The notes under the pieces are model-generated. The model did not search any database. It was not told where the DNA came from and saw only the letters and a list, made by a program, of their open reading frames with translations. 64,000 bases of DNA, taken from an archaeon (GTDB lineage: Archaea; Iainarchaeota; Iainarchaeia; Iainarchaeales; JANQMZ01). Position 1 is the stretch's first letter, and every line of letters begins with the position of its first letter. Location of the stretch: NCBI GenBank assembly GCA_028279805.1, contig JANQMZ010000007.1, positions 214,399 to 278,398 on the forward strand, in the 5' to 3' direction. The position numbers were made by a program, and so were the translations under genes. Below are positions 2,178-36,766 of the stretch, one piece after another.

Positions 2178-3663
2178 ATTCCAGCTGATCCTGCTGGCGA
2201 ACACTGCTATTGAGATTCGATTAAGACATGCAAGTCTGAGAAACAAAGTTATGGTTGTTTCTGGCGAACGGCTCAGTAACACGTGGGTAATCTGCCCTTG
2301 GAAAGAATTAAACCCGGGAAACTGGGCATAATGTTCTATAGGCAAAATATTCTGGAATGATTTTTTGCTAAAAGGTTGTAACACCATGCTGTTACAATGT
2401 CCAAGGATGAGCCTGCGGTGGACTAGGTTGTTGGCGGGGTAACTGCCCACCAAGCCTTTGATCCATACGGGCCTTGAAAGAGGTGGCCCGGAGAAGGGAA
2501 CTGAGATACGGTCCCTAGCCCCACGGGGTGCAGCAGTCGCGAAACCTTTACAATGCACGAAAGTGTGATAAGGGAATCTCAAGTGCTACTTTTTGTGGCT
2601 TTTGCCAACTTTAAAAAGGTTGGCGAATAAGTGGAGGGCAAGATACGTGCCAGCCGCCGCGGTAACACGTACTCCGCAAGTGGTGTTCACTAATATTGGG
2701 CCTAAAACGCCTGTAGCCTGTTCAAAAAGTTTTTGGTGAAATCGGCAAGCTCAACTTGTCGAAGTGCCAAAAATACTGTTGAACTCGAGACCGGGAGGTG
2801 TGAGAGGAATTTTCGGAGTAGCGGTGAAATGTTATGATCCCGAAAGGACCACCAGTAGCGAAGGCGTCTCACAAGAACGGTTCTGACGGTGAGAGACGAA
2901 AGCTGGGGGAGCGACCCGGATTAGATACCCGGTTAGTCCCAGCCGTAAACGATGTGGATTAGGTGTTCTGACACTGTAAAGTGCTGGAGCGCCACAGCGA
3001 AGGCGTTAAATCCACTGCCTGGGGAGTAAGGTCGCAAGGCCGAAACTTAATGGAATTGGCGGGGGCGCACTACAAGGGGTGGATGCTGCGGTTTAATTGG
3101 ATTCAACGCCAGACAACTCACCAGGGTTGACAGCACAATGATGGACAGTCTGAAGGGCTTTCCTGAGGCGCTGAGAGGTGTTGCATGGCCATCGTCAGCT
3201 CGTACTATGAAGCGTCCTGTTAACTCAGGCAACGAGCGAGACCCACGCCACTAGTTGCTATTCACCTATTAGGTGGAGCACTCTAGTGGGACTGCTTGCG
3301 TAAGTGAGAGGAAGGAGTGGGCCACGGTAGGTCTGTATGGCCCGAATGCCCTGGGCTACACGCGGCATACAATGGTTAAGACAATGAGTTTCGAGTCCGA
3401 AAGGACAAGGTAATCCCCTAAACTTAACCTCAGTCCGGATTGAGGGTTGCAACTCACCCTCATGAAGCTGGAATCCCCAGTAATCGCGTGTCATTATCGC
3501 GCGGTGAATAAGTCCCTGCGCCTTGCACACACTGCCCATCAAGCCAGCTGAATAGGGTTTGGATGAGCTGTTTTCATCTGAGGATATCAATTCCATGTCC
3601 TGTAAGGCGGGCTAAGTTGTAACAAGGTGTCCGTAGGGGAACCTGCGGACGGATCACCTCCTT
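2178..3663 (+). rRNA. rrs: 16S ribosomal RNA (archaeal)
   Basis: 5' end ATTCCAGCTGATCCTGCTGG, internal GTGCCAGCCGCCGCGGTAA, 3' end GGATCACCTCCT; approx 1485 nt; ends +-5 nt. Confidence 0.9.
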
Positions 3664-3676
3664 AATTTATCAGCAA

Positions 3677-3704
3677 AGCTGTACGAACCCAAAAAGTTCA
3701 CAGG
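3677..3704 (+). other. 16S rRNA processing stem, 3' strand
   Basis: Complement of 2101-2128. Confidence 0.7.
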
Positions 3705-3771
3705 TAAAAATGGCTGAATATGAGTATTTAAAACATTTAAATGTTTTCAATCAAAAAGTTCTATAGTGTTT

Positions 3772-3802
3772 TATGTGCTATCTTTAGATAGCACCTGAAG
3801 CG
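3772..3802 (+). promoter_or_regulatory. conserved palindromic TATA-containing element upstream of tRNA-Ala (tatgtgctatctttagatagcacctgaagcg)
   Basis: Near-identical 31-nt copy at 36569-36599 upstream of tRNA-Ser(GGA); TATA-like tttagata 42 nt from tRNA 5' end; stem gtgctatct/agatagcac. Confidence 0.45.
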
Positions 3803-3824
3803 GAGTGTCCGTACGCAATCGGAC

Positions 3825-3897
3825 GGGCTCATAGCTCAGCTGGTAGAGCGCCGCCTTTGCAAGGCGGAGGCCACGGGTTCGATCCCCGTTGAGTCCA
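3825..3897 (+). tRNA. tRNA-Ala (anticodon TGC) in 16S-23S spacer
   Basis: GGGCTCATAGCTCAGCTGGTAGAGCGCCGCCTTTGCAAGGCGGAGGCCACGGGTTCGATCCCCGTTGAGTCCA; cloverleaf folds, G3:U70 Ala identity pair, T-loop TTCGATC, no encoded CCA. Confidence 0.9.
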
Positions 3898-4139
3898 TGC
3901 CCGATGTTTCGGGCGGGAACGTGTCATTTGCAATGACACTGGCACTTTGCGGAGTGCAAATTAGACTTAAATCCATTTTTTGGATTTATTGTTCCGTTTG
4001 GAACTGCGGGTCTGTCGCTTTTGACGGACTTAAGTAATTGACGTATGTTTTTTTCAAAACAAGGTTTTGAAATTGTCACTGAAAGTGATATGTAAAGTGC
4101 GCTTGTAAAATAGCGCCGCAAAGCACAGCGTCGGTTTTG

Positions 4140-4193
4140 CATTGGTAGGCAAATTGGTCTATTAATTAGTCATTAATTCAGCGAGTACAAGAG
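4140..4193 (+). other. 23S rRNA processing stem, 5' strand (pairs with approx 7154-7215)
   Basis: gcattggtaggcaaattggtctat...gtacaagag complementary to ctcttgtac...ggtagaccaagcctacaaccaatgc after 23S. Confidence 0.6.
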
Positions 4194-7162
4194 TTAATAC
4201 TAAGCCAGCTAGCGAATAACTTGGCTCAACCACCGATGACAGGCGTGGCAAGCTGCGATAAGCCATGGCGAGACGCATGCAGTCTTTGAACCATGGATTC
4301 CTTAATTATTCCGAAAGGAAGGGTAATGCGGTGAATTGAAGCATCTTAGTAACCGCAAGAAAAGAAATCGAATGAGATACCGTTATTATCAGCGAGAGAA
4401 AACGGTTCAGGTCAAACCGAATCCTTCATTGCAAAATGTTGGAAATGTGGTGTGAGCAGTTTACATCCAAATTTATTAGAAGAAGTTTTCTGGAACGTAA
4501 TGCCATAGAGGGTGAAAGCCCCGTATTTAAAATTTTGGAGGATGATTTTCTGTTTCAAGAGTAGCGTGCATTGGATATTGTGCGCAAACATGGGCATCTT
4601 TAATGCCTAAACCTAAAAATGTGTTGAGTCCGATAGTGAACTAGTACTGTGAAGGAAAGTTGAAAAGCATCCCTGACGGGAGTTTAAAAGCGTTTGAAAC
4701 TAGTTGGTGATTGGCTGATGCAGCGTGAAAGAAACGATTCTCTTAAAAGAAACTTTTTGAAAAATTGGAATCGATAAGAGATGATCAGCGTTGCATCGTT
4801 CGTCTTGAAACACGAGCGAGGGAGTTTGTTGTTGTGGCGAGATTAATTTCATTATGAAAGAAATCATAGCGAAAGCGAATAGTTCGCAGCTTCGGTGAGG
4901 AACAAAGTATGTTCTGCTTTTAGTCACTGCAACAAGACCTGAAAACAGGTGATCTATTCTTGGGCAAGATGAAGCCCTCCTTCCGGGGGGTGGAGGTCTG
5001 AACAGTAGCTAGTCTATCTGCACTGATGATCTGAGAATAGGCGTAATATGCGACTCGAACCTGTCGATAGCAGGCTCCTCTTAAAGTAGCTCTCAGGCTA
5101 GCCTGGTTGGAGAAGCCATATGGTGTAGAGATACTGATTAAAAAGTACTGGGGCGAGAGCCCTAGCTTTTTTGTCAAACTCCAAAGTCATATGGTTTGTA
5201 GAAAACCGGAGTAGGAGCATTCGGGTAAGCCGAATGTTCTTGAGGGGAACAACCCAGTCGTAGGTTAAGGCCCATAAACACCAGTTAAGTGTTAAACCGA
5301 AGGGTGTTCTTATGCTAAAACAGTAGGGAGGTTGGCTTAGAAGCAGCCATCCTTTAAAGAATGCGTAACAGCTCACCTACCTAGGATGAGAGCCCCAAAA
5401 ATAATCCGGGCTAAACTGGTTGCCGATACCTACGGGCACTCATTTTTTGAGTGGTTCAATAAAGAGGTATTCTGATGGAGTTAAAGCAAGGCAGTAATGT
5501 CTTGTGAATCTTTCAGAAAAATGGATCCTCGTGCTAGTATTAACTATTGAGCGGTGAGAATCCGCTCCCCCGAAAGGACAAGGGTTCCTTAGCGCTTATT
5601 ATAAGCTAAGGGTCAGTCGGCCCTAAGCATGTTCATAACTTGAAACATGCAAAAGGGAAACAGGTTCATATTCCTGTACTATTCAAATACGCTTTCGGCA
5701 ACGAATGGCTATTTTTTGACGCTTTGAGCTAGGAAAGTTTTCTTGTCTGAAAACTTAACAAGCATAGTTCTTTGGAGAACTGTCATTGTGAGAAAAAGAA
5801 TAAAGCTTGGAATAGCCGCAAGGTTTTTCCGATGCTCATAGCCCTTGAAAAGAAAAATAGCAAGAATTTTGAATAACCGTACCGAGAACCGAGAAAGGTG
5901 TCCTGGCTTAGGAAGCCAAGGGGTATCAGGATAACAACGTTGAGGGAATTCGGCAAATTAGCCCTGTATCTTTGGTATAAGGGGTGCCTGTTTTGAAGAA
6001 AGCAGGTTTCAATAGCAAAGGGAGTCCGACTGTTTACTAAAAACACAGGTCCCTGCAAGTCTGTAAAGATGTGTATAGGGGCTGACTTCTGCTCACTGCC
6101 AGTACGTGAAACTCCGGTTCAATGGAATTAAGCGCTGGTAAAGAGCGGGCCTAACTCTGAGGCTCTTATGGTAGCGTAATACCTTGCCGGTTTATTGCCG
6201 GCTTGCACCAACGAAGTAACGAGATTCCCACTGTCCCCAACATTGGCCTGATGAACTCGCTGCCCGGTGAACATGCCGGGGACTTCCAACGGGAAGAGAA
6301 GACCCCACGGAGGTTTACTACAGTCTGATGCTGTGATATAATTTTTGGAGTACAGTGTAGATGGGAGTAATCGAAATAATTTCGCTAGGAATTATGGATA
6401 CATCAATGGAACACCATCCTTCAAAAATTGTACCGCTTACTCGTAAGAGGACACCATCAGGTGGGTAGTTGGACTGGGGCGGTACGCCCCTGAAACAGTA
6501 TCAGGGGCGCCCAAAGGTCTGCTCAGACGAGTCGGGAATTCGTCGTAGAGTGCAAGAGCAAAAGCAGGCTTGACCTTGTTTCACAAAGCAAGAAACGAGG
6601 ATTCGAAAGAACGGTCTAGCGAACGACAGTGTGCCTTTTAAAGGGGCCCTGTTCTGACAGTGAACTTACCCTGGGGGTAATTGTGTTGTCGTGGGTAAGA
6701 GTACACATCGACCCCACGGTTTGCTGCTTCGCCGTCGTCTCATGGCATCCTGGGCGTGCATAAGCGCCCAAGGGTGGAGGTGTTAACTCATTAAAGCCGT
6801 ACGTTAGTTGGGTTGAGAACGGTGCGAGCCAGTTTTGATCCTATCTGTTGGAAGTGCAAGGTGACTGAGGGGAAGCTCCAATCAGTACGAGAGGAACGTT
6901 GGGTCGCAGCCACTGGTTTACCAGTTGTTTGACAAAGCATTGCTGGGTAGCTACGCTGTAACTGATAAGGGCTGAAAGCATCTAAGCTCGAAGCAGTCCC
7001 TGAAAAGAGTCACCTATGACTGAATATGTTTTTTCTGCGGAAAAAATATCTAAGTCCGAGAGTTCCCGTAAAAGACGGGTTTGATAGGCTGGAAGTGTAA
7101 GCTAAAAGCTTCGGCGATTAGTTAAGCTCACCAGTACTAAACACTTGAGTTGACTCTTGTAC
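4191..7162 (+). rRNA. rrl: 23S ribosomal RNA (archaeal)
   Basis: 5' region ...ggcaagctgcgataagccatggcgagacgc; 3' region ...ggctgaaagcatctaagctcgaag...ccagtactaaacacttgagttgactc; approx 2970 nt; ends approximate (+-15 nt). Confidence 0.85.
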
Positions 7163-7215
7163 AAAGAACAGTGAGTTTGTGGCAAATTGGTAGACCAAGC
7201 CTACAACCAATGCAT
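7154..7215 (+). other. 23S rRNA processing stem, 3' strand
   Basis: Complement of 4140-4193. Confidence 0.6.
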
Positions 7216-7217
7216 GT

Positions 7218-7232
7218 TTTTTATTTTTTTTG
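7218..7232 (+). terminator. oligo-T tract (ttttttattttttt) after rRNA operon
   Basis: Archaeal intrinsic terminators are T-runs; no 5S gene follows. Confidence 0.5.
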
Positions 7233-7772
7233 AATAATGTTGATTGCATGAGCAGATTAAGAGAATTAAAAAAAGCGAAAAATGAAACCAAAAACAATTC
7301 AATGATTTGGCTGGTTGCCGGAATTGTTGTATTGCTTGGAATTGGAAGTGCTTTGTTTTTATTTAGTGGATCATCCAATTCCGGAAATTCTTCAGAATTG
7401 AATACTGCCGGTTTAAGTTTTCCTTTGGTTAATGTTCACTGGCATGCCACTCCTATTGTAAATGTTTGCGGTGAAAACAAGCCAATTCCTGTTGCGCCTG
7501 TTACTGACCATTTGTTGCACACTCATGAGGACAGATTAATTCATATTGAAGGCACTGTTAACAGCCCTGAACAAATTACTTTAGGCCGGTTTTTCGGTTT
7601 GGTTGGAGTTAAATTTTCTTCAACTCAGTTGTTGGATAAAACAAATGGCGATGTTTGTGAGAACACTGGACAGCCTGGAAAAGTTTCAATGACTGTTAAT
7701 GGTGTTCCAAGTGAAGAGTTTGAAAACCATGTTGTAAGGCATGGTGAAACAATTATAGTAAGTTTTGATTAA
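7230..7772 (+). CDS. hypothetical exported/membrane protein (start uncertain; may be at Met 7248 or later)
   Basis: 180 aa ORF; N-terminal hydrophobic helix IWLVAGIVVLLGIGSALFLF then Ser/Asn-rich linker; annotated start lies inside the rRNA terminator T-run. Confidence 0.45.
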   Translation: MNNVDCMSRLRELKKAKNETKNNSMIWLVAGIVVLLGIGSALFLFSGSSNSGNSSELNTAGLSFPLVNVHWHATPIVNVCGENKPIPVAPVTDHLLHTHEDRLIHIEGTVNSPEQITLGRFFGLVGVKFSSTQLLDKTNGDVCENTGQPGKVSMTVNGVPSEEFENHVVRHGETIIVSFD

Positions 7773-7810
7773 TCAATAAGCTTTTTATACTCTCAATGAG
7801 CAATTATAAT

Positions 7811-8133
7811 GTAAGGTAGTGAAAGGGCAGTTAAGGAATTCTCTGAATTCTTAGGAAAGTCCACCCACTCGTTAAAAATCTCGCAAGAGAAATTCTCGAA
7901 AGGGAGTCCATTGGAACAGAAACGAACTCAGGCAAACTTTGACAATGATAAAAAATTGAGTTGTTTGTTTTTGGGATGAAACGGCTGATGGTTTGAGTGC
8001 AAGTCATTGAGACGCTTAGACGAATGCTGCCAAGATGTGCTTTGTCAAAAAAGCAGGAATCAACAACAGAATGATTCTCGGTTTTTGAAACCGTATCCTA
8101 ACAGAAGGTGGCTTACTCTTCACTGCCTTACAT
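7811..8133 (+). ncRNA. rnpB: RNase P RNA (archaeal type)
   Basis: ORF-free 400 bp gap; CR-I motif AGGAAAGTCC at 7851-7860; CR-V motif ACAGAAGGTGGCTTAC at 8101-8116 with P4 covariation (GTCCACC/GGTGGC); terminal P1 pairing gtaaggtagtgaa / ttcactgccttac; upstream TATA ctttttatac approx 25 nt before 5' end; followed by T-run. Confidence 0.75.
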
Positions 8134-9392: not shown

Positions 9393-12059
9393 ATGGGTTT
9401 GGACAAAAAAAAACTGGCAAAACAATTTCAAAAAGACTGGAAAAAACACTACAAAGTGAAATTCTTAGAACAAAGCGGTTTTAAAAGAATTAAATGTCAG
9501 TCCTGCGGAAAACATTTTTGGTCATTGGATTCTGACAGAAAAACTTGTGCTGATTCAAGTTGTGTTGGATTTGAATTTATCGGACAAAAAGGAAAAAATT
9601 TGGGTTATACTGAAACATGGGAAAAAATTGAAAAATATTTTACAAACAAAGGACACAAATCCATTACCCGTTATCCAACTGTTTGCAGGTGGCGTGATGA
9701 TTTATATTTTACTAATGCTTCAATTATTGATTTTCAGCCTTACGTTGTTTCCGGTGAAATTGAGCCTCCGGCAAATCCTTTGATTGTGCCACAGCCAAGC
9801 ATCAGGTTTAGTGATATTGAAAATGTCGGAGTAACAGGACAGCATTATTCTTCGTTCATAATGTTCGGACAGCATGCTTTTAATTCAAAAAAAACAGGAT
9901 TGTTTTACTGGAAAGATGAAGCACTGGAACATGATTTTAATTATTTAACAAAAGTTTTGGGCGTAAAAAAAGAAGACATAACTTTTATTGAAGATGTTTG
10001 GATGGGTGGAGGAACTTTTGGCCCGAGTATTGAATATGCAGCAAAAGGTGTGGAACTGGGTAATTGTGTGTTTATGCAGTTTAAAGATTTGGGTAAAGGA
10101 AAATTTGAGGAATTGCCGACAAAAGTTATTGATATGGGAGCCGGACTGGAAAGGCTGGCATGGTATACTAATGGCAGCCCCACAAGTTATGAAATTACAT
10201 TCGGACCTGTTGTGCAGAAAATGAAAAAAAATGCAGGCATAAAAATTGACAACAAGTTGTTCACAGAATTTTCAAAACTTTCAGGTGCACTTGACGTTGA
10301 AACTCATAATGTTAAAGAAAAAAGAGAAAAAATTGCAAAGCAATTAAAAGTTGATGAAGAGGAATTTTTTGGCACTTTAAAGCCTTTGCAGGCTGTTTAT
10401 GCTTCAGCAGACCATTTGAAAACATTGCTGTATACGGTTGGTGACGGGCAAATGCCAAGCAATGGTTCAGGCGGATATAATCTGAGAATGCTGTTAAGAA
10501 GAGTTTTTGGTTTTAATGAAGAGTTTGATTTAAGGCTTGATTTTATCCAGGTGTTAAGAGAACATGCTGATTATTTGAAAGATTTTGACCCGATTTTAAA
10601 AGAAAATGTTGAAACTGTTGTTCAGGTAATTGAAGAAGAAGAAAAAAAGTTTGAAGAAACAAAATTAAAAGGAGCAAGAAAAATTGAAACAATTGTTAAA
10701 AAGAATAAAAAAATTGATTCAAAAGAATTAATTAAATTATATGAAAGTGATGGTATTTCTCCTGAATTAATTGAAGAAAAAGCACAGGAAGCCGGTGTTA
10801 AAATAAATATTCCTGAAAATTTTTATGGTTTGATTGCTGCAAAAAATGAAAAAGACAAAAAACTGATAAAACATGAAATTGATGTAAGGCCTTACAAAAA
10901 AACAAAAACATTGTTTTATGAGGATTCTTATTTAAGGGAATGCAATGCAACTGTTTTGGGAGTAATAGACAAAGGAATTATTTTGGATCAGACTGTTTTT
11001 TATGCAGAGGGAGGAGGACAGGAATCCGATGAAGGTTTTATTGACGGCATAAAAGTTGAATTTGTTGAAAATGTGGACGGAGTATTGATACATTTTGTTG
11101 AAAATCCTGATAAATTTAAAAGAGGAAAAAAAGTTTTTTGTGAAATTGATTGGAACAGAAGAATTGATTTAATGAGGCATCATACCGGTGCTCATCTGTT
11201 AAATGCAGCAGCAAGACAGGTTTTGGGAAAACATGTCTGGCAGACAGGAGCCCATAAAGCAAGAGAAAAAGCACATTTAGATATAACCCATTACAAGCGT
11301 ATTACCGGTAAAGAATTAAAACAAATGGAGTTATTGGCTAACCAGTTTGCATTGGAACAGCATGAAGTTGAAACAATGTTTATGCTGAGAAATGAAGCTG
11401 AAAAAAAATACGGATTCAGGTTATACCAGGGAGGGTTTGTGCCTGGAAAAACAATCAGAATTGTTAATGTTAAAAGTGTTGATGTTGAAGCATGCGGCGG
11501 AACACATTTAAAAAATTCGTCAGAAGTCGGGTTATTCAAAATTTTAAAAAGAGAAGGAATTCAGGACGGAGTTGAAAGAATTGTATATGTATGCGGGTTG
11601 CCTGCAATTAAGGAAATGCAGAAAAAAGAAAGCTTGTTAAAAGATGCAGCTGAAAAACTTTCGGTTCCTGAAAAAAGTTTAACAAAAACAACTCAAAGAT
11701 TTTTTAATGAATGGAAAGAGCAGAAAAAAACAATTGAATCACTGGAAAAAGAATTGATTGAATTAAAAACAGCAGAATTGCTGAAAATGGATGAAGAGAT
11801 AATCACAACTTATGTTCACGGACTGACTGCACAGGGTTTGATGAATTTGGCTAAAAAAGTTTTAAATGAAAAAGAAAATTCTTTATTGATAATAGGTTCA
11901 GGGGAAAATGTTTTTGCATTATCCGGAAAAAAATGTTCAAAAAATGCAAAAAAAGAACTGGCATTATTGTTACAGGAAACAAAATGGCAGGGTGGAGGCA
12001 ATGAAAAGCTTGCAAGGGGCAAAGTCCAAAATGCAAAAGAGTTGGAAAAACTGCTTTAA
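9393..12059 (+). CDS. alaS: alanyl-tRNA synthetase, archaeal type
   Basis: 888 aa; N-terminal Zn motif IKCQSCGKHFWSLD...CADSSC typical of archaeal AlaRS; editing-domain motifs HHTGAHLL and CGGTHL. Confidence 0.92.
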   Translation: MGLDKKKLAKQFQKDWKKHYKVKFLEQSGFKRIKCQSCGKHFWSLDSDRKTCADSSCVGFEFIGQKGKNLGYTETWEKIEKYFTNKGHKSITRYPTVCRWRDDLYFTNASIIDFQPYVVSGEIEPPANPLIVPQPSIRFSDIENVGVTGQHYSSFIMFGQHAFNSKKTGLFYWKDEALEHDFNYLTKVLGVKKEDITFIEDVWMGGGTFGPSIEYAAKGVELGNCVFMQFKDLGKGKFEELPTKVIDMGAGLERLAWYTNGSPTSYEITFGPVVQKMKKNAGIKIDNKLFTEFSKLSGALDVETHNVKEKREKIAKQLKVDEEEFFGTLKPLQAVYASADHLKTLLYTVGDGQMPSNGSGGYNLRMLLRRVFGFNEEFDLRLDFIQVLREHADYLKDFDPILKENVETVVQVIEEEEKKFEETKLKGARKIETIVKKNKKIDSKELIKLYESDGISPELIEEKAQEAGVKINIPENFYGLIAAKNEKDKKLIKHEIDVRPYKKTKTLFYEDSYLRECNATVLGVIDKGIILDQTVFYAEGGGQESDEGFIDGIKVEFVENVDGVLIHFVENPDKFKRGKKVFCEIDWNRRIDLMRHHTGAHLLNAAARQVLGKHVWQTGAHKAREKAHLDITHYKRITGKELKQMELLANQFALEQHEVETMFMLRNEAEKKYGFRLYQGGFVPGKTIRIVNVKSVDVEACGGTHLKNSSEVGLFKILKREGIQDGVERIVYVCGLPAIKEMQKKESLLKDAAEKLSVPEKSLTKTTQRFFNEWKEQKKTIESLEKELIELKTAELLKMDEEIITTYVHGLTAQGLMNLAKKVLNEKENSLLIIGSGENVFALSGKKCSKNAKKELALLLQETKWQGGGNEKLARGKVQNAKELEKLL

Positions 12060-12071
12060 AAGGTGTTATAA

Positions 12072-14948
12072 GTGAATTTTAGCTCTATTGAAAAAAATAG
12101 TCAGAAAACTTGGGAAGATGAAAAACTTTTTTCTCCGGAAATTGATTCAGAAAAAAAAGGATTTTACATTCAGGTTGCTTACCCGTATCCAAGCGGGGCA
12201 ATGCATATAGGACATGCAAAAACGTACACTACTACAGATATTATTGCAAAATACAAAATGCTTGCAGGCTATAATGTGTTAATGCCAATGGGATGGCATG
12301 TTTCAGGAACACCCGTGCTGGCAAGCGTTGAAAAATTAAAGGAAAAAGATTCTGAAACAGTTAAAATTTTTACAGAAAATTTTAAAATTCCTGAAAAAGA
12401 TTTAAAAAAAATGCATACGCCTGATGGCCTTGTTAATTATATGGTTGATGAAGCGGAATACGGTTACAAAAAAGGAATGAAAATTTTGGGATTCGGAATT
12501 GACTGGAGAAGAGAGTTGAAAACAATTGATGAACAATATAAAAAATTTATTGAATGGCAGTATGAAAAACTGAATCAAAAAAAATTAATCGGAAAAGGAA
12601 AATATCCGATTCGTTATTCACCAAAAGACAAAATGGCTGTCGGAGACCATGATTTGAAAGAGGGAGAAGGAATAGGAATTCAGGAATTTACTTTGCTGAA
12701 ATTCAAACTTGAAGGATTTAAGAACAGGTTTTTGGTTGCAGCTACTTTAAGGCCTGAAACAGTTTACGGGCAGACAAATTTATGGTTAAATCCGGAATAC
12801 AAATACACTGTCATAAAAACAGGTAAAGAGGAATGGATTTTAAGTGAAAAAGCGGCAGAAAAGTTAATTTATCAAAAAGAAAACATAAAAAAAATTGGGA
12901 AAATGAACTCAAGAGAGCTTTTAGGTGAAAAAGTTGAAGCTCCTGGAATTGACAGAAAAATTCCGATCTGGCCTGCTTCTTTTTGTGATCCTGAAATTGG
13001 CTCAGGAATTGTAACAAGTGTTCCGAGTGATGCTCCTATCGACATGGCCGCTTTGATTGACCTGCAGTCTGATGAAAGCATTGCAAAAAAACACGGGCTT
13101 GATTTTGAGGAAATTAAAAATACAAAAATTATTCCGATTATTAAGACCAAAAAATTCGGAGAAAATGCAGGGGAAAAAATTTTAAAAGAAATGAATATAA
13201 AAAATCAAAAAGAGCTTGATAAGCTAGAAAAAGCAAAAGAAATTGTTTACAAAGAAGGGTTTCATTCAGGAGTCATGCTTGAAGCTGCCGGAAAATTCAA
13301 GGGATTAAAAGTTTCAAAAGCAAAAGATTTGATTAAGGAAGAATTGATTAAACAGGGAAAAGCTGATTTATTTTTTGAACTTGAAGGAAAAGTTGTTTCC
13401 AGGTCGGGCGGAGAATGTGTTGTTCGTTTGCTTGATGACCAGTGGTTTGTAAAATATGGCAATAAAGAATGGAAAAAGAACAGTAAAAAAGATTTGGACG
13501 GAATGAAAATTGTTCCGGAAGTTTTTAGAAAACAGTATGAACAGATTTTTAACTGGCTTGATGACAAGCCTTTGACCCGTGCCAAAGGCCTGGGTACAAA
13601 ATTTCCATGGCAAAAAGACCAGGTAATTGAACCGCTGGGAGATTCAACTGTTTACATGGCTTATTTTACTATTGCACATTTGATTAATACAATTGAAGCT
13701 CAAAAGTTAAACGATGAGTTTTTTGATTTTATTTTTCTGGGAAAAGGTTCAGCAAAAAATGTTGCCGATAAAACCGGTTTAAAAGTGGATTTAATTGAGG
13801 AATTGAAAAAAAATTTTGATTATTGGTATCCTCTGGCTTTTAATGTTTCAGCCATTGAATTGATTCCGAATCATATGAGTTTCAGCATTTTTCAGCATAA
13901 TGCAATTTTTCCTCAAAACAAAAGGCAGATTGGCACAATTAATTTGGGAATGCTTATTTTGGAAGGAAAAAAAATGAGCTCATCAAAAGGAAATGTTATT
14001 CTGATTAATGATATTTGCAAAAAAATGGGAACTGATTATGTCAGGTTTTCTTTAATGAATTTTGTTGAACCGTGGGAAGAAATGAACTGGCAGTCAAAAG
14101 AAGTGTCAAAAGGAATTAAAAATTTGAATAATTTTGTTGAACAAATTTTCAAACTTGCAAACTCGGTTGATGAAGAAAAAATTGATTTAAAAAAATTAAA
14201 TGATGTGGATAAATGGTTTTTGAACCGGATAAATTTTAGAATTAACAATTATATTGGAAAAATGAATGAATTTGAATTAAGATCAGCCTTGCAGGAAATG
14301 TCCTTTAATTTGGCAAAAGATTTTAAGTGGTATAAAAGAAGAAATTCAAAATTAAACAATGCGATTATTTTTTATTTTGTTAAAAACTGGTGTAAAATTA
14401 TTTCACCTTTTATGCCTCACCTGGCTGAAGAATTATGGAGGCATGTTTTGAAACAAAAAAACTCCGTTTTTTTATCAGGTTTGCCTGAAAAGCAAAAAAT
14501 TGACAAATCAGTGGGGGCGGGAGAAAACTTAATTGAAAAAGTTTTGGATGACGTTATTGCCATTAAGGCTTTGGCTAAAATTGAAAAACCTAAAAAAATT
14601 GTTTTTTACATTGCCGATGAATGGAAATGGAATGCTTTGAAATTGCTGAAAAAAGTGGACAGGCCTGATTTTGGCTTGGTTATAAAAACTTTAATGGCTG
14701 ATAAAACTGTTAAAAAACAGGGTAAAACTGCTCAACTGGTAGCAAAAGAATTTTCTTCAAGATTAATGGAGTTTAAAGATTTGGAAAAAATTGATGAGGA
14801 AAAAATTTTGAATGATTCAAAGGAGTTTCTGTTAAAGGAATTGAATGCTCAAAAAATTGAAATTTTTCATGAGAAAAAATCAGGTTTTGACCCCCAAAAC
14901 AAAGCGGTTAAATCAATGCCGGGAAAGCCTGCAATTTATTTGGAGTAA
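12072..14948 (+). CDS. leuS: leucyl-tRNA synthetase, archaeal/eukaryal type
   Basis: 958 aa class I aaRS; HIGH motif (PYPSGAMHIGHAKTY) and KMSKS motif (KMSSSKGN). Confidence 0.92.
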   Translation: MNFSSIEKNSQKTWEDEKLFSPEIDSEKKGFYIQVAYPYPSGAMHIGHAKTYTTTDIIAKYKMLAGYNVLMPMGWHVSGTPVLASVEKLKEKDSETVKIFTENFKIPEKDLKKMHTPDGLVNYMVDEAEYGYKKGMKILGFGIDWRRELKTIDEQYKKFIEWQYEKLNQKKLIGKGKYPIRYSPKDKMAVGDHDLKEGEGIGIQEFTLLKFKLEGFKNRFLVAATLRPETVYGQTNLWLNPEYKYTVIKTGKEEWILSEKAAEKLIYQKENIKKIGKMNSRELLGEKVEAPGIDRKIPIWPASFCDPEIGSGIVTSVPSDAPIDMAALIDLQSDESIAKKHGLDFEEIKNTKIIPIIKTKKFGENAGEKILKEMNIKNQKELDKLEKAKEIVYKEGFHSGVMLEAAGKFKGLKVSKAKDLIKEELIKQGKADLFFELEGKVVSRSGGECVVRLLDDQWFVKYGNKEWKKNSKKDLDGMKIVPEVFRKQYEQIFNWLDDKPLTRAKGLGTKFPWQKDQVIEPLGDSTVYMAYFTIAHLINTIEAQKLNDEFFDFIFLGKGSAKNVADKTGLKVDLIEELKKNFDYWYPLAFNVSAIELIPNHMSFSIFQHNAIFPQNKRQIGTINLGMLILEGKKMSSSKGNVILINDICKKMGTDYVRFSLMNFVEPWEEMNWQSKEVSKGIKNLNNFVEQIFKLANSVDEEKIDLKKLNDVDKWFLNRINFRINNYIGKMNEFELRSALQEMSFNLAKDFKWYKRRNSKLNNAIIFYFVKNWCKIISPFMPHLAEELWRHVLKQKNSVFLSGLPEKQKIDKSVGAGENLIEKVLDDVIAIKALAKIEKPKKIVFYIADEWKWNALKLLKKVDRPDFGLVIKTLMADKTVKKQGKTAQLVAKEFSSRLMEFKDLEKIDEEKILNDSKEFLLKELNAQKIEIFHEKKSGFDPQNKAVKSMPGKPAIYLE

Positions 14949-15373
14949 AAACCTTTGTTTTCATAATCTAAATACATTTTACAGCATAGTGAACCTTTGC
15001 TTACAGCTTCATGCAAATCTTCCGAAGTGCCCCATTTTATTGCTTGATATTGTGTAATTCCTTTTATAGGCTGAGGTGCTTTTGGTTTTCCGTGCACTAT
15101 CTCTGCTTCATATTCTTTCATATTAAGAATATATTTTTCCCGTTCTGTCTGGTCTTCCCCAATAAGTTTAATTATTTTGAGCTTTACTCCAAGTTTTTGT
15201 TTTCCTGAACGCAATGTTGCTTTTTCAAAAGATTCATCTTCTTTAACTGAACCTGCTGGTAAACCCCAAGCCCCTGGCAGGTTTTCATCATCGTCTGGCC
15301 TTTTAACTATTAAAAATTTTGATCTGTCTTCAGTGTAAATCACATAAGAAATTGCGTTCTTTACTGGTTTCAT
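14936..15373 (-). CDS. Nudix-fold protein with degenerate Nudix box
   Basis: 145 aa; ...FLIVKRPDDDENLPGAWGLPAGSVKEDESFEKATLRSGKQKLGV fits Nudix fold but REUxEE is RSGKQK (catalytic Glu residues absent). Confidence 0.5.
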   Translation of the reverse strand: MKPVKNAISYVIYTEDRSKFLIVKRPDDDENLPGAWGLPAGSVKEDESFEKATLRSGKQKLGVKLKIIKLIGEDQTEREKYILNMKEYEAEIVHGKPKAPQPIKGITQYQAIKWGTSEDLHEAVSKGSLCCKMYLDYENKGFYSK

Positions 15374-15412
15374 ATCTTTTATAGGAGCAGAGACTTATAT
15401 AAAATTTTTCAT

Positions 15413-17197
15413 TTATTTTGAGAGTCCTTCTTCAACATTTGTAACTTTTTTAACTTTTTTAAGTGCTTTCATGGCTTTGTCAAATTTGGTTTTTGTTTTT
15501 GCATCAACCCTGAATTCAACGTAAAGATTTTGACCAAGCCTTTCCTGATAAACATTTTCAATATTTATTTTAAATTTTGAAAGCACGCCAGTTAAGTCAT
15601 GCATTAAGCCTATTCTGTCACCTGCTCTTACAAAAATATATTTTAAACCTATTTTTTTGTCGGATTTTCTGGTTGACAATTTTAATGCTTTTATTATTTT
15701 TTCTTTTGTCTGAAGAGAATTTGTCATCTGAAGCCAGTCCGTTGAAACTGTTTTCTTTTTTGATTTGACGCATTCAATTCTGTTTCCGGAATGAAGTTCT
15801 GTGAAAAAAGGAACTTCTTTTCCGTTAACAAAAACTTTTTTTAGGTTGTTTCCTGTGTTTTTGTCAATGTGATATGCATAGTCCAGAGCAGTTGAATGTG
15901 AAGGTAAAGAATCAATTTTGCCGCTGTTGTCAAAAACAAAAATATGGTTTTGCAAAAATTCTTCTTTTAATGCGTCAAAAAATTTGTCACTTGACGCCAG
16001 TTTTAATTCTAAAACAGCTGCGGCTCTTCCAAGTTTTTTCTGGTAAAGAGTTTTTGAGCCTTTTTCAGGATCCAGGGCTGCTATTCCTTTTCTGGCAATT
16101 TTGTCCATTCTTTCAGAACGAATATAAACACGTACAGGCAGGCCTTTTGGGCCCAAAACTGTTGTGTGAATTGAACTGTATGTTCCGTCTCTTGGAACCG
16201 CTATAAAGTCTTTTAATTTTCCGGGAATTGGGTAAAAAGTTGAATGAATTAAACCTAAAACTTCATAGCATTCAGTGAAATTTTTGGTAACAACTACCAG
16301 TACAAGATAGTCATATATTTCGTCAAGTGAACGGTTTCCTTTTTTCATTTTTGCATAAATGTTATACAAGCTTTTTTCAAGAGTGTAAAAACGATAATTT
16401 CTGAAAGGAAAAACAATTTTGTTTTTTAAAATTTGAATCATTGAATCTGTTTGTTTTAACTTTGATTTTTTTTGTTTTTTAATTTTTTCTGACAATTCCT
16501 GAAATATTTTTGGTTCAAGAATTTTAAAACTTGAATCTTCCATTTCCCTTGCAATTGAATGCAATCCGAACCGGTGTGCTAACGGTGCATAAACCTGTAA
16601 AATTTGGTTGGCAATTCTTTTCCTTTTTTTTGGTTTTAAATATGATAATGTTCTTGAATTATGAAGCTTGTCTGCAAGTTTTATCAAAATGACTCTGTAA
16701 TCTTTTACCGATGCCAACAAAAGTTTTTGAAAAGATTTTAATTCTGCGGTTTTTCTTCCTTCAAGGGAAATTATGTCAAGTTTTGTTACTCCTTTAACAA
16801 GTTCTAAAACTGTTTTTCCGAATTTTTCTTCAACTTCTTTTTCTGTAGCATCAGTATCTTCCAAAACGTCATGCAATAGTCCTGCAATTATTATTTCATT
16901 TGAAACGTTGTATTCAAGCAAAATGTTTGCAGTTTCATAAAGATGAACAAAATATTTTTCGCCCGATTCTCTTTTTTGTTTTGAATGTTTTTCTTCGGCA
17001 AAAATAAAAGCTTCTTTTATTTTTTTTATATTTGGTTTTTTTATGTTTTTCCTGGCTTTTTTTAATAAAAGTTTTAATTCTTTTCTGAAAAGTTTTGCTT
17101 CTTTTTTTGTAAATGCTTTTAAAAAATCAAGTTTTGGCAGGCTTGGAACGCTTTTCAAAATGGGTTTTTTTGACATATTATAGTATATTTGAAGCAA
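15413..17197 (-). CDS. long RelA/SpoT homologue (RSH): HD hydrolase + (p)ppGpp synthetase + TGS + ACT domains
   Basis: 594 aa; HD motif LLHDVLEDT; synthetase motifs YNIYAKMKKGNRSLDEIYDYLVLVVVT and SIHTTVLGPKGLPVRVYIRSERMDKIARKGIAA; TGS-like HIFVFDNSGKIDSLPSHSTALDYAYHI...VNGKEVPF; C-terminal ACT-like segment. True start may be Met at 17176. Confidence 0.8.
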   Translation of the reverse strand: MLQIYYNMSKKPILKSVPSLPKLDFLKAFTKKEAKLFRKELKLLLKKARKNIKKPNIKKIKEAFIFAEEKHSKQKRESGEKYFVHLYETANILLEYNVSNEIIIAGLLHDVLEDTDATEKEVEEKFGKTVLELVKGVTKLDIISLEGRKTAELKSFQKLLLASVKDYRVILIKLADKLHNSRTLSYLKPKKRKRIANQILQVYAPLAHRFGLHSIAREMEDSSFKILEPKIFQELSEKIKKQKKSKLKQTDSMIQILKNKIVFPFRNYRFYTLEKSLYNIYAKMKKGNRSLDEIYDYLVLVVVTKNFTECYEVLGLIHSTFYPIPGKLKDFIAVPRDGTYSSIHTTVLGPKGLPVRVYIRSERMDKIARKGIAALDPEKGSKTLYQKKLGRAAAVLELKLASSDKFFDALKEEFLQNHIFVFDNSGKIDSLPSHSTALDYAYHIDKNTGNNLKKVFVNGKEVPFFTELHSGNRIECVKSKKKTVSTDWLQMTNSLQTKEKIIKALKLSTRKSDKKIGLKYIFVRAGDRIGLMHDLTGVLSKFKINIENVYQERLGQNLYVEFRVDAKTKTKFDKAMKALKKVKKVTNVEEGLSK

Positions 17198-17211
17198 TTT
17201 ATAAAAATCTT

Positions 17212-19023
17212 TTACATTTGCTCTAATGGTTCAACATTTAACAATTTTAAGGCTTTTTTCAGGACAATTGAAAAAGCTTTTACAAGTGAGAGTCTTGCTT
17301 TAACGGTTTCCTTGTTTTCAGCATTTAAAACGGGGATATCCTGGTAAAAAGAATTAAACGAGGTGGCCAATTCGTTTAAATAAATGCATAAATGATGCAT
17401 TGAATTTGAAGAGCGGCTTTTTTGAACAGCATCTTTAAAATGCCATAATTTTTTTATAACTTCAAGTTCTTTTTTTTCTTTCAACAAAGAAAAATCTGCA
17501 TTTTCAGGATTTGAAGCTTTTCTTAAAATTCCTTTTGCTCTTGCATAAGAATACATTAAATATGGTCCTGAGTCTCCCTCAAAAGATAATGATTGCTGGG
17601 GAACAAATGTAAAATTTTTTTTGGAATCAATTTTTAACATTGAAAATTTTATTGCTGCAAGAGCTATTTTTAACGCTCTTTTTTCTAATTCATCTTTTTT
17701 TACATTTGGAAATCTTTTAATAATTTCTTTTTGTGCGGAATTTTTTAACTGTTTTATTAAATCATCAGCATCAATTGTGTTGCCTTCACGGCTTTTTAAT
17801 TTTCCTTCAGGCAATAAAACCAGGCCATAACTTAAATGATGAGATTTTTTTGCTTCACTGTAACCCAATAAATCCATTATTTTGAACAATTGTTTAAAAT
17901 ACAAGTCTTGTTCTGATGCAACAACATAATAACTTTCATCAAATTTGTAATCTTTAAATTTTTTTAACATTAAAACCATGTCCTGGTTAATGTAAATTGA
18001 TGAACCGTCTGAGCGCAGAATTATTTTGTTCGGAATTTTATATTTTTCCAAATCAGCTATAATTCTGTTTTTATCATCTTTAACAAAAACACCTGTTTTT
18101 AGCCCTTTTTTTATCAAAGGTTTTGCTTTGTCATACAAATCTGATTCAAAATAAATTTTGTCAAATTCTGAACCGAATGTTTTGTAAGTTTCTTTAAAAC
18201 CTTCAAGAGCCCAGTCTCTTGATTTTTTCCATAATGCTCTTACATTTTTATCTTTTCTTTCCCAGTCTAAAAGCATTTTTTGTGCTTCTTTTTCAAGTGT
18301 TTCATCTTTTTTTGCTTTTTCGTGAAACAAAACATAATATTTTCCGGCAAACTTGTCTCCTTTTAATTTTTCTTTTTCAGGTGTTGAATTTTTTCCGAAT
18401 TTTTTGTATGCAACAAGCCCCTGGCAGATGTGAATGCCCCGGTCATTTATTATGTTTACTCGTGCGACTTTGTTTTCATAAAATTCGAGCAAATTTGAAA
18501 AAGCCATTCCGATGCTGTCATTTCTTAAATGCCCTAAATGTAAAGGTTTATTTGGATTTGGCTGGGAATATTCCACTACAATTTTTTTATTTTCAGGTTT
18601 TGGTTTTCCAAAATTTTCTTTTTTTTCAAAAATTTCTGTTAAAATTTTTTGAGTTAAAAATGTGCTGTTGACAAAAAAATTCAGATAAGGCCCTGCTGCT
18701 TCCGCTTTTGATAATTCTTTTGGCATTTTTAATTTTTGTGAAAGATTTTTTGCAATTTCATTCGGGTTTTTTTTAAGCTCTTTTGCGAGCAAAAAACAGG
18801 GAAAAGCGTAATCACCGAGCTTTGAATCCGGGGGAATTTCCAACGCTTTTATTATCTGCTTTTCTTTTAATGAGGAAACTTCCTTGGATAAAAGTTTTGC
18901 GATTATTGTTTTAAAATGCATGGAATAATTAGAAAAAACCCTTTTAATAAGGTTTTCCAGCTCTACTTTTTTTTGGTGAAATTGGATGTATGCAGTATCT
19001 TCATCCGGAGGAAAAGACAGCAC
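17212..19023 (-). CDS. argS: arginyl-tRNA synthetase
   Basis: 603 aa class I aaRS; HIGH-region NPNKPLHLGHLRN; C-terminal DALR anticodon-binding region. Confidence 0.88.
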   Translation of the reverse strand: MLSFPPDEDTAYIQFHQKKVELENLIKRVFSNYSMHFKTIIAKLLSKEVSSLKEKQIIKALEIPPDSKLGDYAFPCFLLAKELKKNPNEIAKNLSQKLKMPKELSKAEAAGPYLNFFVNSTFLTQKILTEIFEKKENFGKPKPENKKIVVEYSQPNPNKPLHLGHLRNDSIGMAFSNLLEFYENKVARVNIINDRGIHICQGLVAYKKFGKNSTPEKEKLKGDKFAGKYYVLFHEKAKKDETLEKEAQKMLLDWERKDKNVRALWKKSRDWALEGFKETYKTFGSEFDKIYFESDLYDKAKPLIKKGLKTGVFVKDDKNRIIADLEKYKIPNKIILRSDGSSIYINQDMVLMLKKFKDYKFDESYYVVASEQDLYFKQLFKIMDLLGYSEAKKSHHLSYGLVLLPEGKLKSREGNTIDADDLIKQLKNSAQKEIIKRFPNVKKDELEKRALKIALAAIKFSMLKIDSKKNFTFVPQQSLSFEGDSGPYLMYSYARAKGILRKASNPENADFSLLKEKKELEVIKKLWHFKDAVQKSRSSNSMHHLCIYLNELATSFNSFYQDIPVLNAENKETVKARLSLVKAFSIVLKKALKLLNVEPLEQM

Positions 19024-30189: not shown

Positions 30190-30266
30190 GTAAACCAGCC
30201 AAATATGCAAACAAAGTAAACCAGTGCTGCCGAAGGCGCACGTTCCCACCCGAAACATCGGGCTAG

Positions 30267-30338
30267 CGGACCCGGAGGGATTCGAACCCTCAACCCACAG
30301 CTTAGAAGGCTGTTGCGCTTCCGTTGCGCCACGGGCCC
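30267..30338 (-). tRNA. tRNA-Arg (anticodon TCT)
   Basis: GGGCCCGTGGCGCAACGGAAGCGCAACAGCCTTCTAAGCTGTGGGTTGAGGGTTCGAATCCCTCCGGGTCCG; good cloverleaf; acceptor stem contains G3:T70 wobble. Confidence 0.85.
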
Positions 30339-30431
30339 TTTTTTAGCTATTAATTGTGGTTTGATAGATTTTAAACCTTTTTTAATTAAATTCAAAAACC
30401 TATTTAAAGCATTAAACAATAATAATTAGCA

Positions 30432-36388: not shown

Positions 36389-36462
36389 AAAATGAAATAA
36401 CTTACAAAACATTTTTAAGTCCCAGTGAAACTGGGACGTTCGCAGCCGGAACACCGGCTAAG

Positions 36463-36546
36463 CGCAGGGGACGAGATTTGAACTCGCGCGTTCCGAAGAA
36501 CACAAGCTTTCCAGGCTTGCGCGTTAAACCACTCCGCCACCCCTGC
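36463..36546 (-). tRNA. tRNA-Ser (anticodon GGA), long variable arm
   Basis: GCAGGGGTGGCGGAGTGGTTTAACGCGCAAGCCTGGAAAGCTTGTGTTCTTCGGAACGCGCGAGTTCAAATCTCGTCCCCTGCG. Confidence 0.85.
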
Positions 36547-36599: not shown

Positions 36600-36682
36600 T
36601 TCCGTCCGGACGCAACCGCGCTCTCAAGAGCGCAAGTGCTATCGCAGATAGCACGCGGATTGTCCCTACGCAATGGGACAAG

Positions 36683-36766
36683 CGCAGAGAGAGAGATTCG
36701 AACTCCCGCGTTCCGAAGAACACCAGGTCTCAAGCCTGGCGCGTTAAACCACTCCGCCATCTCTGC
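36683..36766 (-). tRNA. tRNA-Ser (anticodon TGA), long variable arm
   Basis: GCAGAGATGGCGGAGTGGTTTAACGCGCCAGGCTTGAGACCTGGTGTTCTTCGGAACGCGGGAGTTCGAATCTCTCTCTCTGCG. Confidence 0.85.

Follow-up and report, generated by a model that had tools for sequence, protein, structure and literature searches.

We find that a tRNA-Arg(UCU) gene, lying in a 64-kb stretch of archaeal DNA (here called the window, meaning the whole stretch that was analyzed), carries in its acceptor stem the G3:U70 wobble pair, the textbook case of a single base pair setting tRNA identity. Sequence comparison suggests that the tRNA is most likely functional and of an ordinary kind, adding one more case to a recurrent and under-discussed archaeal class of tRNA-Arg in which G3:U70 is combined with the discriminator base G73. 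The major arginine tRNA of archaea appears commonly to sit one mutation away from the alanine mark, or directly on it, beside a canonical alanyl-tRNA synthetase (AlaRS).

The original prediction took G3:U70 to be the dominant AlaRS determinant, and the literature agrees, according to which the pair is the chief determinant of alanine identity in every domain of life and often suffices by itself (PMC9976931; PMC8583063). Transplanting G3:U70 into another tRNA has often been enough for alanylation in bacteria and eukaryotes, including E. coli, yeast, plants, and human cells (PMC9976931; PMC7954030), and a tendency among non-alanine tRNAs to stay clear of G3:C70 and A3:U70 has been noted, since a single mutation would then switch their identity (PMC7954030). 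[quoted passage not shown] The arginine identity set consists of A20 in the D-loop, C35, U36 or G36, and A73 or G73 (PMC9976931). A literature search for papers specifically on G3:U70 in archaeal tRNA-Arg returned none.

The tRNA-Arg(UCU) gene and its synthetases

The gene (Table 1) is called as tRNA-Arg(tct) at 30266-30338 by ARAGORN, which sets the anticodon at gene base 33, and it matches the Rfam tRNA family over the full model (1-71, running from 30338 to 30267) with 69.2 bits (E 5e-13; the gathering score is 29) and zero noncanonical pairs flagged. Numbered from 1 to 73, it lacks residue 17, and CCA is not encoded. The 5' part of the RNA reads GGGCCCG-U-G-GCGC-AACGGAA-GCGC-A-ACAGC-CUUCUAA-GCUGU, and the 3' part continues as GGGUU-GAGGG-UUCGAAU-CCCUC-CGGGUCC-G. 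Its acceptor stem, GGGCCCG/CGGGUCC, has six Watson-Crick pairs and a single wobble among its 7 bp (1:72 G-C, 2:71 G-C, 3:70 G-U, 4:69 C-G, 5:68 C-G, 6:67 C-G, 7:66 G-C). Rfam and ARAGORN recover the 7-bp acceptor stem, the D, anticodon, and T arms, and the conserved tertiary nucleotides, all of which are in place (U8, A14, G18, G19, A21, U33, G53, U54, U55, C56, A58, and C61). The D-loop is unusually short, with 7 nt (AACGGAA, that is, A14 A15 C16 G18 G19 A20 A21). A TATA-box-like element, TTTAAAAT, precedes the gene. An archaeal TATA box lies about 26 nt upstream of the transcription start, so the position of TTTAAAAT fits and would leave a short 5' leader; we regard it as the candidate archaeal promoter of the gene.

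Table 1. Coordinates, strands, and supporting evidence of the features discussed, in window positions
Feature	Position	Strand	Evidence or remark
tRNA-Ala(UGC), in the 16S-23S spacer	3825-3897	+	ARAGORN, Rfam; GGGCUCA/UGAGUCC, A73
RNase P RNA	7815-8127		Rfam
AlaRS, 888 aa, full-length archaeal type	9393-12059	+	Pfam tRNA-synt_2c and tRNA_SAD
RelA/SpoT-type protein, 594 aa	15413-17197	minus	HD_4, RelA_SpoT, TGS, and ACT domains
ArgRS, longest ORF 603 aa (569 aa as called in Logan contig L040)	17212-19023	minus	Pfam
G+C-rich segment of about 45 nt	30222-30266	minus	directly 3' of tRNA-Arg(UCU)
tRNA-Arg(UCU) gene, 72 nt	30267-30338	minus	ARAGORN, Rfam RF00005, Logan contigs
Discriminator G73 (A73 in tRNA-Ala)	30267	minus	sequence
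U70, wobble partner of G3 (A on the + strand)	30270	minus	sequence; Logan contig L040 agrees
Anticodon UCU, positions 34-36	30304-30306	minus	ARAGORN; C35 and U36 are ArgRS determinants (PMC9976931)
G3, acceptor stem	30336	minus	sequence; Logan contig L209 agrees
TTTAAAAT, TATA-box-like element	30368-30375	minus	30-37 nt upstream of the mature 5' end
Predicted secreted protein, 743 aa	33131-35362	minus	internal duplication
tRNA-Ser genes, GGA and UGA, in tandem	36462-36546 and 36682-36766	minus	135 nt apart

The two critical bases are found again in an independent Logan assembly of run SRR20820740, in which two contigs end inside the gene and together reproduce G3 and U70; one (L209) stops at ...AAAAAAGGGCCCGTGGCGCAACGGAAGCGCAACAGC, corresponding to positions 1-31 of the tRNA, and the other (L040) begins with TTGAGGGTTCGAATCCCTCCGGGTCCGCTAGCCCG, corresponding to positions 47-73. 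The two contig ends, at positions 31 and 47, flank the anticodon arm, as would be expected if the sample contains the central k-mers of the tRNA in multiple genomic contexts or variants.

The original prediction of a tRNA-Arg(TCT) with G3:U70 in a clean cloverleaf is borne out by the ARAGORN and RF00005 calls, by the sequence itself, and by the two Logan contigs, and refolding with ARAGORN returns the same tRNA and supplies the strand, earlier left unstated, as minus. It had also likened the stem to that of the resident tRNA-Ala, and rightly so, since acceptor pairs 1-4 of tRNA-Arg(UCU) and tRNA-Ala(UGC) are identical; position 73 differs (G vs A). The alternative acceptor register giving G3:C70, which it had raised, does not exist, as the flanking bases, A at -1 and C at +74, do not pair.

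The segment directly 3' of the gene is G+C-rich (CTAGCCCGATGTTTCGGGTGGGAACGTGCGCCTTCGGCAGCACTGG) in a 33% G+C genome. It was considered as a second RNA and rejected, as its fold is not better than that of shuffled sequences (z-score -1.16) and it has no Rfam matches. Use of the tRNA as the attachment site of an integrated element was likewise rejected, with partial copies of the tRNA halves (at most 3 mismatches) absent across the 64 kb.

The window encodes both synthetases of interest. Residues 19-887 of its AlaRS align with residues 7-893 of the Archaeoglobus fulgidus AlaRS (3WQY) at E 5e-187. In the A. fulgidus enzyme Asn359 reads U70 from the major groove and Asp450 is the minor-groove reader (PMC8583063; PMC11392972). 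In the alignment, Asn357 of the window AlaRS is the equivalent of Asn359 and Tyr105 that of Tyr95, while Glu451 takes the place of Asp450, a position at which the Pyrococcus horikoshii AlaRS also has Glu. As judged by these residues, the AlaRS of this organism is of the standard G:U-reading type. A split, G:U-independent AlaRS of the kind found in Nanoarchaeum was rejected, as the window AlaRS is one 888-aa protein, and its alignment with the A. fulgidus counterpart runs from end to end. ArgRS, whose gene is 11 kb from that of tRNA-Arg(UCU), has the Arg_tRNA_synt_N (N-terminal, D-loop-binding), tRNA-synt_1d (catalytic), and DALR_1 (anticodon-binding) domains of Pfam.

The archaeal nature of the window, which has a G+C content of about 33%, is evident from its archaeal SSU and LSU rRNAs and archaeal RNase P RNA (Rfam). 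The closest homologues of its V-ATPase subunit I are 41-45% identical and come from metagenome-assembled genomes (MAGs) labelled Ca. Diapherotrites, Aenigmarchaeota, Micrarchaeota, and 'ainarchaeum'. By sequence, the organism belongs with the DPANN-type archaea, and the databases searched contain no close relative of it.

Pair 3:70 in archaeal arginine tRNAs

Close orthologues of the gene were sought by sequence pattern and by synteny. A pattern built on the 7-nt D-loop (GCNNAANGGAANNGC...CTTCTAA...GGTTCGAATCC) had no archaeal match among GTDB species representatives, matching only 6 bacterial contigs, and is too narrow to recover archaeal orthologues. The adjacent HGSNAT-like membrane protein has a best relative of at most 39% identity, on a contig without a tRNA, and the relatives of V-ATPase subunit I (41-45% identical) have no tRNA within 10 kb.

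A broader pattern, CTTCTAA-N13-GGTTCRAATCC-N3-CGGGYCCG, was scanned against metagenomes, leaving position 3 free and admitting C or U at position 70. It fixes positions 66-69 as CGGG and 71-73 as CCG, so that G73 is forced for the UCU species. Because the sample of at least 120 loci is constrained by this pattern, the frequencies of the 3:70 states are only indicative: per locus, the matches listed have G:C in 70, G:U in 22, and A:U in 18, the remaining loci being intron-containing, split, or truncated tRNA genes, and the 80 distinct full-length tRNA-Arg(UCU) sequences among the matches listed, the window tRNA included, have G:C in 51, G:U in 15, and A:U in 14. The window tRNA shares G3:U70 with 14 other distinct UCU sequences among the matches listed, and by this count (15/80) G:U at 3:70 is not rare in archaeal tRNA-Arg(UCU). 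The other tRNAs of the same archaeal loci (34 distinct sequences, neither Ala nor Arg) have wobble pairs at 3 of their 238 acceptor pairs, and at 3:70 in none. Both tRNA-Ala genes seen, in the window and on contig L176, have G3:U70 with A73.

To assign the G:U carriers to taxa, we took the names attached to the 90%-identity clusters into which proteins encoded on their contigs fall. They comprise Methanobrevibacter (L151 and, via shared neighbors, L106, L118, L174, and L181), Archaeoglobus-like contigs (L121 and L081), a Geoglobus-like contig (L133), Methanophagales (ANME-1; L129 and L132), Methanothrix (L105), MAGs of the 'Halobacteriota' (L149 and L193), and Ca. Woesearchaeota, another DPANN lineage (L107). 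Independent origins of G:U were judged by this taxonomy because single-linkage clustering of the tRNA cores, which chained 61 of the 80 sequences into one cluster, was uninformative. In the cultured A. fulgidus DSM 8774 (CP006577), the region anchored by ProRS has no tRNA within 10 kb, so that the assignment to Archaeoglobus rests on metagenomic contigs and their 90% protein clusters.

Evidence free of the search pattern comes from a second isoacceptor. On five metagenome loci there is a neighboring tRNA-Arg(CCU) gene outside the selection made by the pattern, and it likewise has G3:U70 and G73. In addition, Methanobrevibacter loci were obtained through a neighboring TIGR00375-family protein, a route that is blind to tRNA sequence, and all six have tRNA-Arg(CCU) and tRNA-Arg(UCU) in tandem, both with G3:U70 and G73; the six come from two protein clusters, one of them named M. 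thaueri. The Methanobrevibacter tRNA-Arg(CCU) stem, GGGCUUG/CAAGUCC, differs from the UCU stem at 5:68 and 6:67. All 11 tRNA-Arg(CCU) genes observed have G1-C72, G2-C71, G3-U70, and G73, with the discriminator unconstrained by the search. As far as these sequences tell, Methanobrevibacter has G3:U70 as a fixed, non-transient feature of its two AGR-reading tRNA-Arg species.

The window tRNA fits the recurrent archaeal group of tRNA-Arg(YCU) with G3:U70 that these genes define, sharing with the other members G1-C72, G2-C71, G3-U70, G73, and an AGR-reading anticodon (UCU or CCU), and with the woesearchaeotal member an identical anticodon stem (ACAGC/GCUGU). The other members are not close orthologues, core identity to the window tRNA reaching at best 78% among the matches listed. 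With canonical archaeal tRNA-Arg(UCU), whose stem is GGGCCCG/CGGGCCC, the window tRNA has in common the anticodon, G73, A20, the 5-nt variable loop, the GGGUUCGAAUCCC T-arm, and every stem base except position 70; it differs in having U70, and hence the wobble, where the canonical tRNA has C70, and in its unusually short 7-nt D-loop.

These results call for a revision of the earlier interpretation, since G3:U70 is not peculiar to the JANQMZ01 genome. The pair and its stem context are real, but the rarity and the risk of mischarging that had been implied do not hold up, as G3:U70 with G73 recurs in at least five other lineages. Comparison with relatives had been proposed as a check, and at the level of the Archaea the feature does prove to be a conserved one in some lineages, with G73 as the candidate compensating anti-determinant, while close orthologues from the organism's own lineage were not found in the searches above.

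Pair 3:70 of archaeal AGR-reading tRNA-Arg would, on the interpretation we favor, be free to vary among G:C, G:U, and A:U, becoming fixed in some clades. A rather unlikely alternative is that G3:U70, together with G73, has been positively selected in these tRNAs for a function of its own and is more than a neutral intermediate between G:C and A:U; taken jointly, the options for such a function would include an ArgRS determinant or kinetic tuner, a modification or processing mark, or an anti-determinant against another synthetase, and each would be compatible with faithful arginylation. That G:U is as frequent as A:U among the matches listed (15 vs 14 distinct tRNA-Arg(UCU) sequences) would fit such selection, as would the absence of wobble at 3:70 from the 34 other tRNAs, where only 3 of 238 pairs are wobbles, and its retention in two Methanobrevibacter isoacceptors that have diverged at 5:68 and 6:67. 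However, 51 of the 80 sequences among the matches listed have G3:C70, which argues that G:U is not required in general, none of the known ArgRS determinants is at 3:70, common ancestry may be all that links the two Methanobrevibacter isoacceptors, and the scan pattern biases the sample.

Several further observations were made on the loci surveyed. The tandem tRNA-Arg(CCU)/(UCU) genes on Methanobrevibacter and related contigs (L203-L208, for example L203 at 7185-7392, and L106, L118, L151, L174, and L181) adjoin the TIGR00375 protein and an F420-non-reducing hydrogenase operon, and on L181 two identical tRNA-Arg(UCU) copies flank the CCU gene. Sixteen loci have a proper tRNA-Arg(UCU) 3' half, starting with the anticodon loop, but an unrelated 5' side (L082, L117, L127, L143, L144, L147, L155, L157, L158, L160, L162, L163, L178, L179, L195, and L199); their appearance is that of archaeal tRNA genes that are split or contain an intron. 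The tRNA-Arg(UCU) genes of phages and giant viruses in IMG/VR have U3:A70, A3:U70, or G3:C70, and G:U in none. Among those on contigs L045-L079, which match the 3' pattern used above, the stems are mostly GGUUCCG/CGGGACC, combining U3:A70 with a U4:G69 wobble at the position that is mischarged by eukaryotic AlaRS. The viral genes were set aside as a guide to the archaeal state, being uninformative for archaea.

Charging by ArgRS or AlaRS

We consider it probable that the gene yields a working tRNA-Arg(UCU) that is charged by ArgRS, with AlaRS kept off and G3:U70 tolerated. The tRNA would be the main reader of AGA and possibly of AGG. In the window, 27 ORFs contain 401 arginine codons, of which AGA accounts for 56% and AGG for 25% (together 81%), so that the tRNA must be charged faithfully; appreciable mischarging would reach most arginine positions, and selection for fidelity must therefore be strong. 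ArgRS would charge it through the usual identity set, which is complete (A20, C35, U36, and G73), and by gripping both the anticodon and the D-loop it may win the kinetic competition against AlaRS. The alanine identity set, on the other hand, is present in G3:U70 and in the secondary element G2-C71 and lacks A73, a base that tRNA-Ala conserves and that is listed among the determinants in Bacteria; G73 replaces it.

It is this G73 that would keep AlaRS off. Arutaki et al. found that any base replacing A73 strongly lowers alanylation by the Nanoarchaeum equitans AlaRS, in an experiment on minihelices with the alpha subunit alone, as distinct from a full-length AlaRS acting on a full tRNA (PMC11392972). 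In the A. fulgidus complex, N6 of A73 is 3.1 Å from the carbonyl of Gly361, and N1 of A73 is 2.8 Å from the hydroxyl of Tyr95 (PMC11392972). A guanine at position 73 would flip the donor/acceptor character at both contact atoms, and these base-specific contacts of archaeal AlaRS to N6 and N1 should thus be impossible for G. The tyrosine that contacts A73 is conserved in the window AlaRS as Tyr105, which would count in favor of faithful arginylation. For the E. coli system, A73 counts as just one among several secondary alanine determinants. With G73 and ArgRS competition combined, the tRNA would accept alanine to no harmful degree.

Other considerations count against this reading and would favor a tRNA of dual identity, in which AlaRS charges a meaningful fraction and AGA, perhaps with AGG, is statistically decoded as Arg or Ala, an outcome that is either tolerated or adaptive. 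The window AlaRS is canonical and retains the G:U-reading Asn357 and an acidic residue, Glu451, in the places of Asn359 and Asp450; the pairs G1-C72, G2-C71, G3-U70, and C4-G69 are the same as in the cognate tRNA-Ala; and by analogy with E. coli, yeast, plants, and human cells, where transplanted G3:U70 led to alanylation, the pair might suffice here too. We nevertheless judge a mistranslating tRNA improbable, as AGA and AGG make up 81% of arginine codons and would spread the load proteome-wide, G73 stands in place of A73, a base that helps archaeal AlaRS to recognize its tRNA, the ArgRS identity set is complete, and the fixation of G3:U70 with G73 in Methanobrevibacter, together with its presence in several other orders, argues that the combination is benign.

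The tRNA-Ala/AlaRS system, as seen in the A. fulgidus complex (3WQY), shares with the window tRNA-Arg a G3:U70 in the context of G1-C72, G2-C71, and C4-G69, and differs in that G73, the UCU anticodon, and A20 mark the latter for ArgRS. Non-alanine tRNAs with an alanine wobble mark are also represented by the yeast tRNA-Pro C70U variant and by human tRNA-Cys and tRNA-Thr with G4:U69 (PMC7954030; PMC8583063). Their alanylation was shown experimentally, and they are minority gene copies or are cross-edited; unlike them, the window tRNA would read the majority arginine codon, and the G3:U70 state is widespread and in places fixed.

The remaining explanation, that G3:U70 is a sequencing or assembly error or that the gene is a decaying pseudogene, is scarcely credible: although the stem is one base away from the common archaeal GGGCCCG/CGGGCCC and the check for a second copy was confined to the 64-kb window of the source genome, the independent Logan assembly has the same G3 and U70, the Rfam score (69 bits) is on a par with that of tRNA-Ala, the conserved tertiary positions are complete with a TATA-like box upstream, and the G3:U70 state is present in the tRNA-Arg of many other archaea.

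A bolder proposal, which we advance tentatively and hold to be doubtful, is that in Archaea the alanine mark alone is insufficient, with A73 as a co-equal determinant, and that G3:U70 with G73 is either a selected signature of AGR-reading tRNA-Arg or a means of low, regulated Arg-to-Ala decoding. If this were true, the signature might tune ArgRS kinetics or serve as a handle for another enzyme, or AGR codons might be subject to regulated Arg-to-Ala decoding in the carriers, including the DPANN organism of the window and the gut methanogen Methanobrevibacter.

The carriers constitute a natural test set for how an archaeal AlaRS rejects a tRNA with G3:U70, with A73 vs G73 as the candidate feature, and some of them, such as Methanobrevibacter, are cultured. 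For annotation, the gene should be called a functional tRNA-Arg(UCU), with no recoding implied.

Other features of the window

Translation-related genes lie close together in the window, at 2178-8127 (16S rRNA, tRNA-Ala, 23S rRNA, and RNase P RNA) and 9393-19023 (AlaRS, a LeuRS-like class I synthetase, and ArgRS). The RNase P RNA begins about 650 nt past the 23S gene, and no 5S rRNA match reaches the Rfam threshold within the 64-kb window. Between the LeuRS and ArgRS genes lies a gene for a RelA/SpoT-type protein (Table 1). Homologues of the long-form (p)ppGpp synthetase/hydrolase are unusual in archaea.

Two tRNA-Ser genes in tandem have nearly identical D and variable arms. A long stretch is duplicated within the 743-aa protein predicted to be secreted: the two blocks, similar to each other and about 270 aa long, both close with a Cys-rich 'CDDANCGVVD...QYCVG.GCTDFWDMN' segment. 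The protein probably resides at the cell surface.
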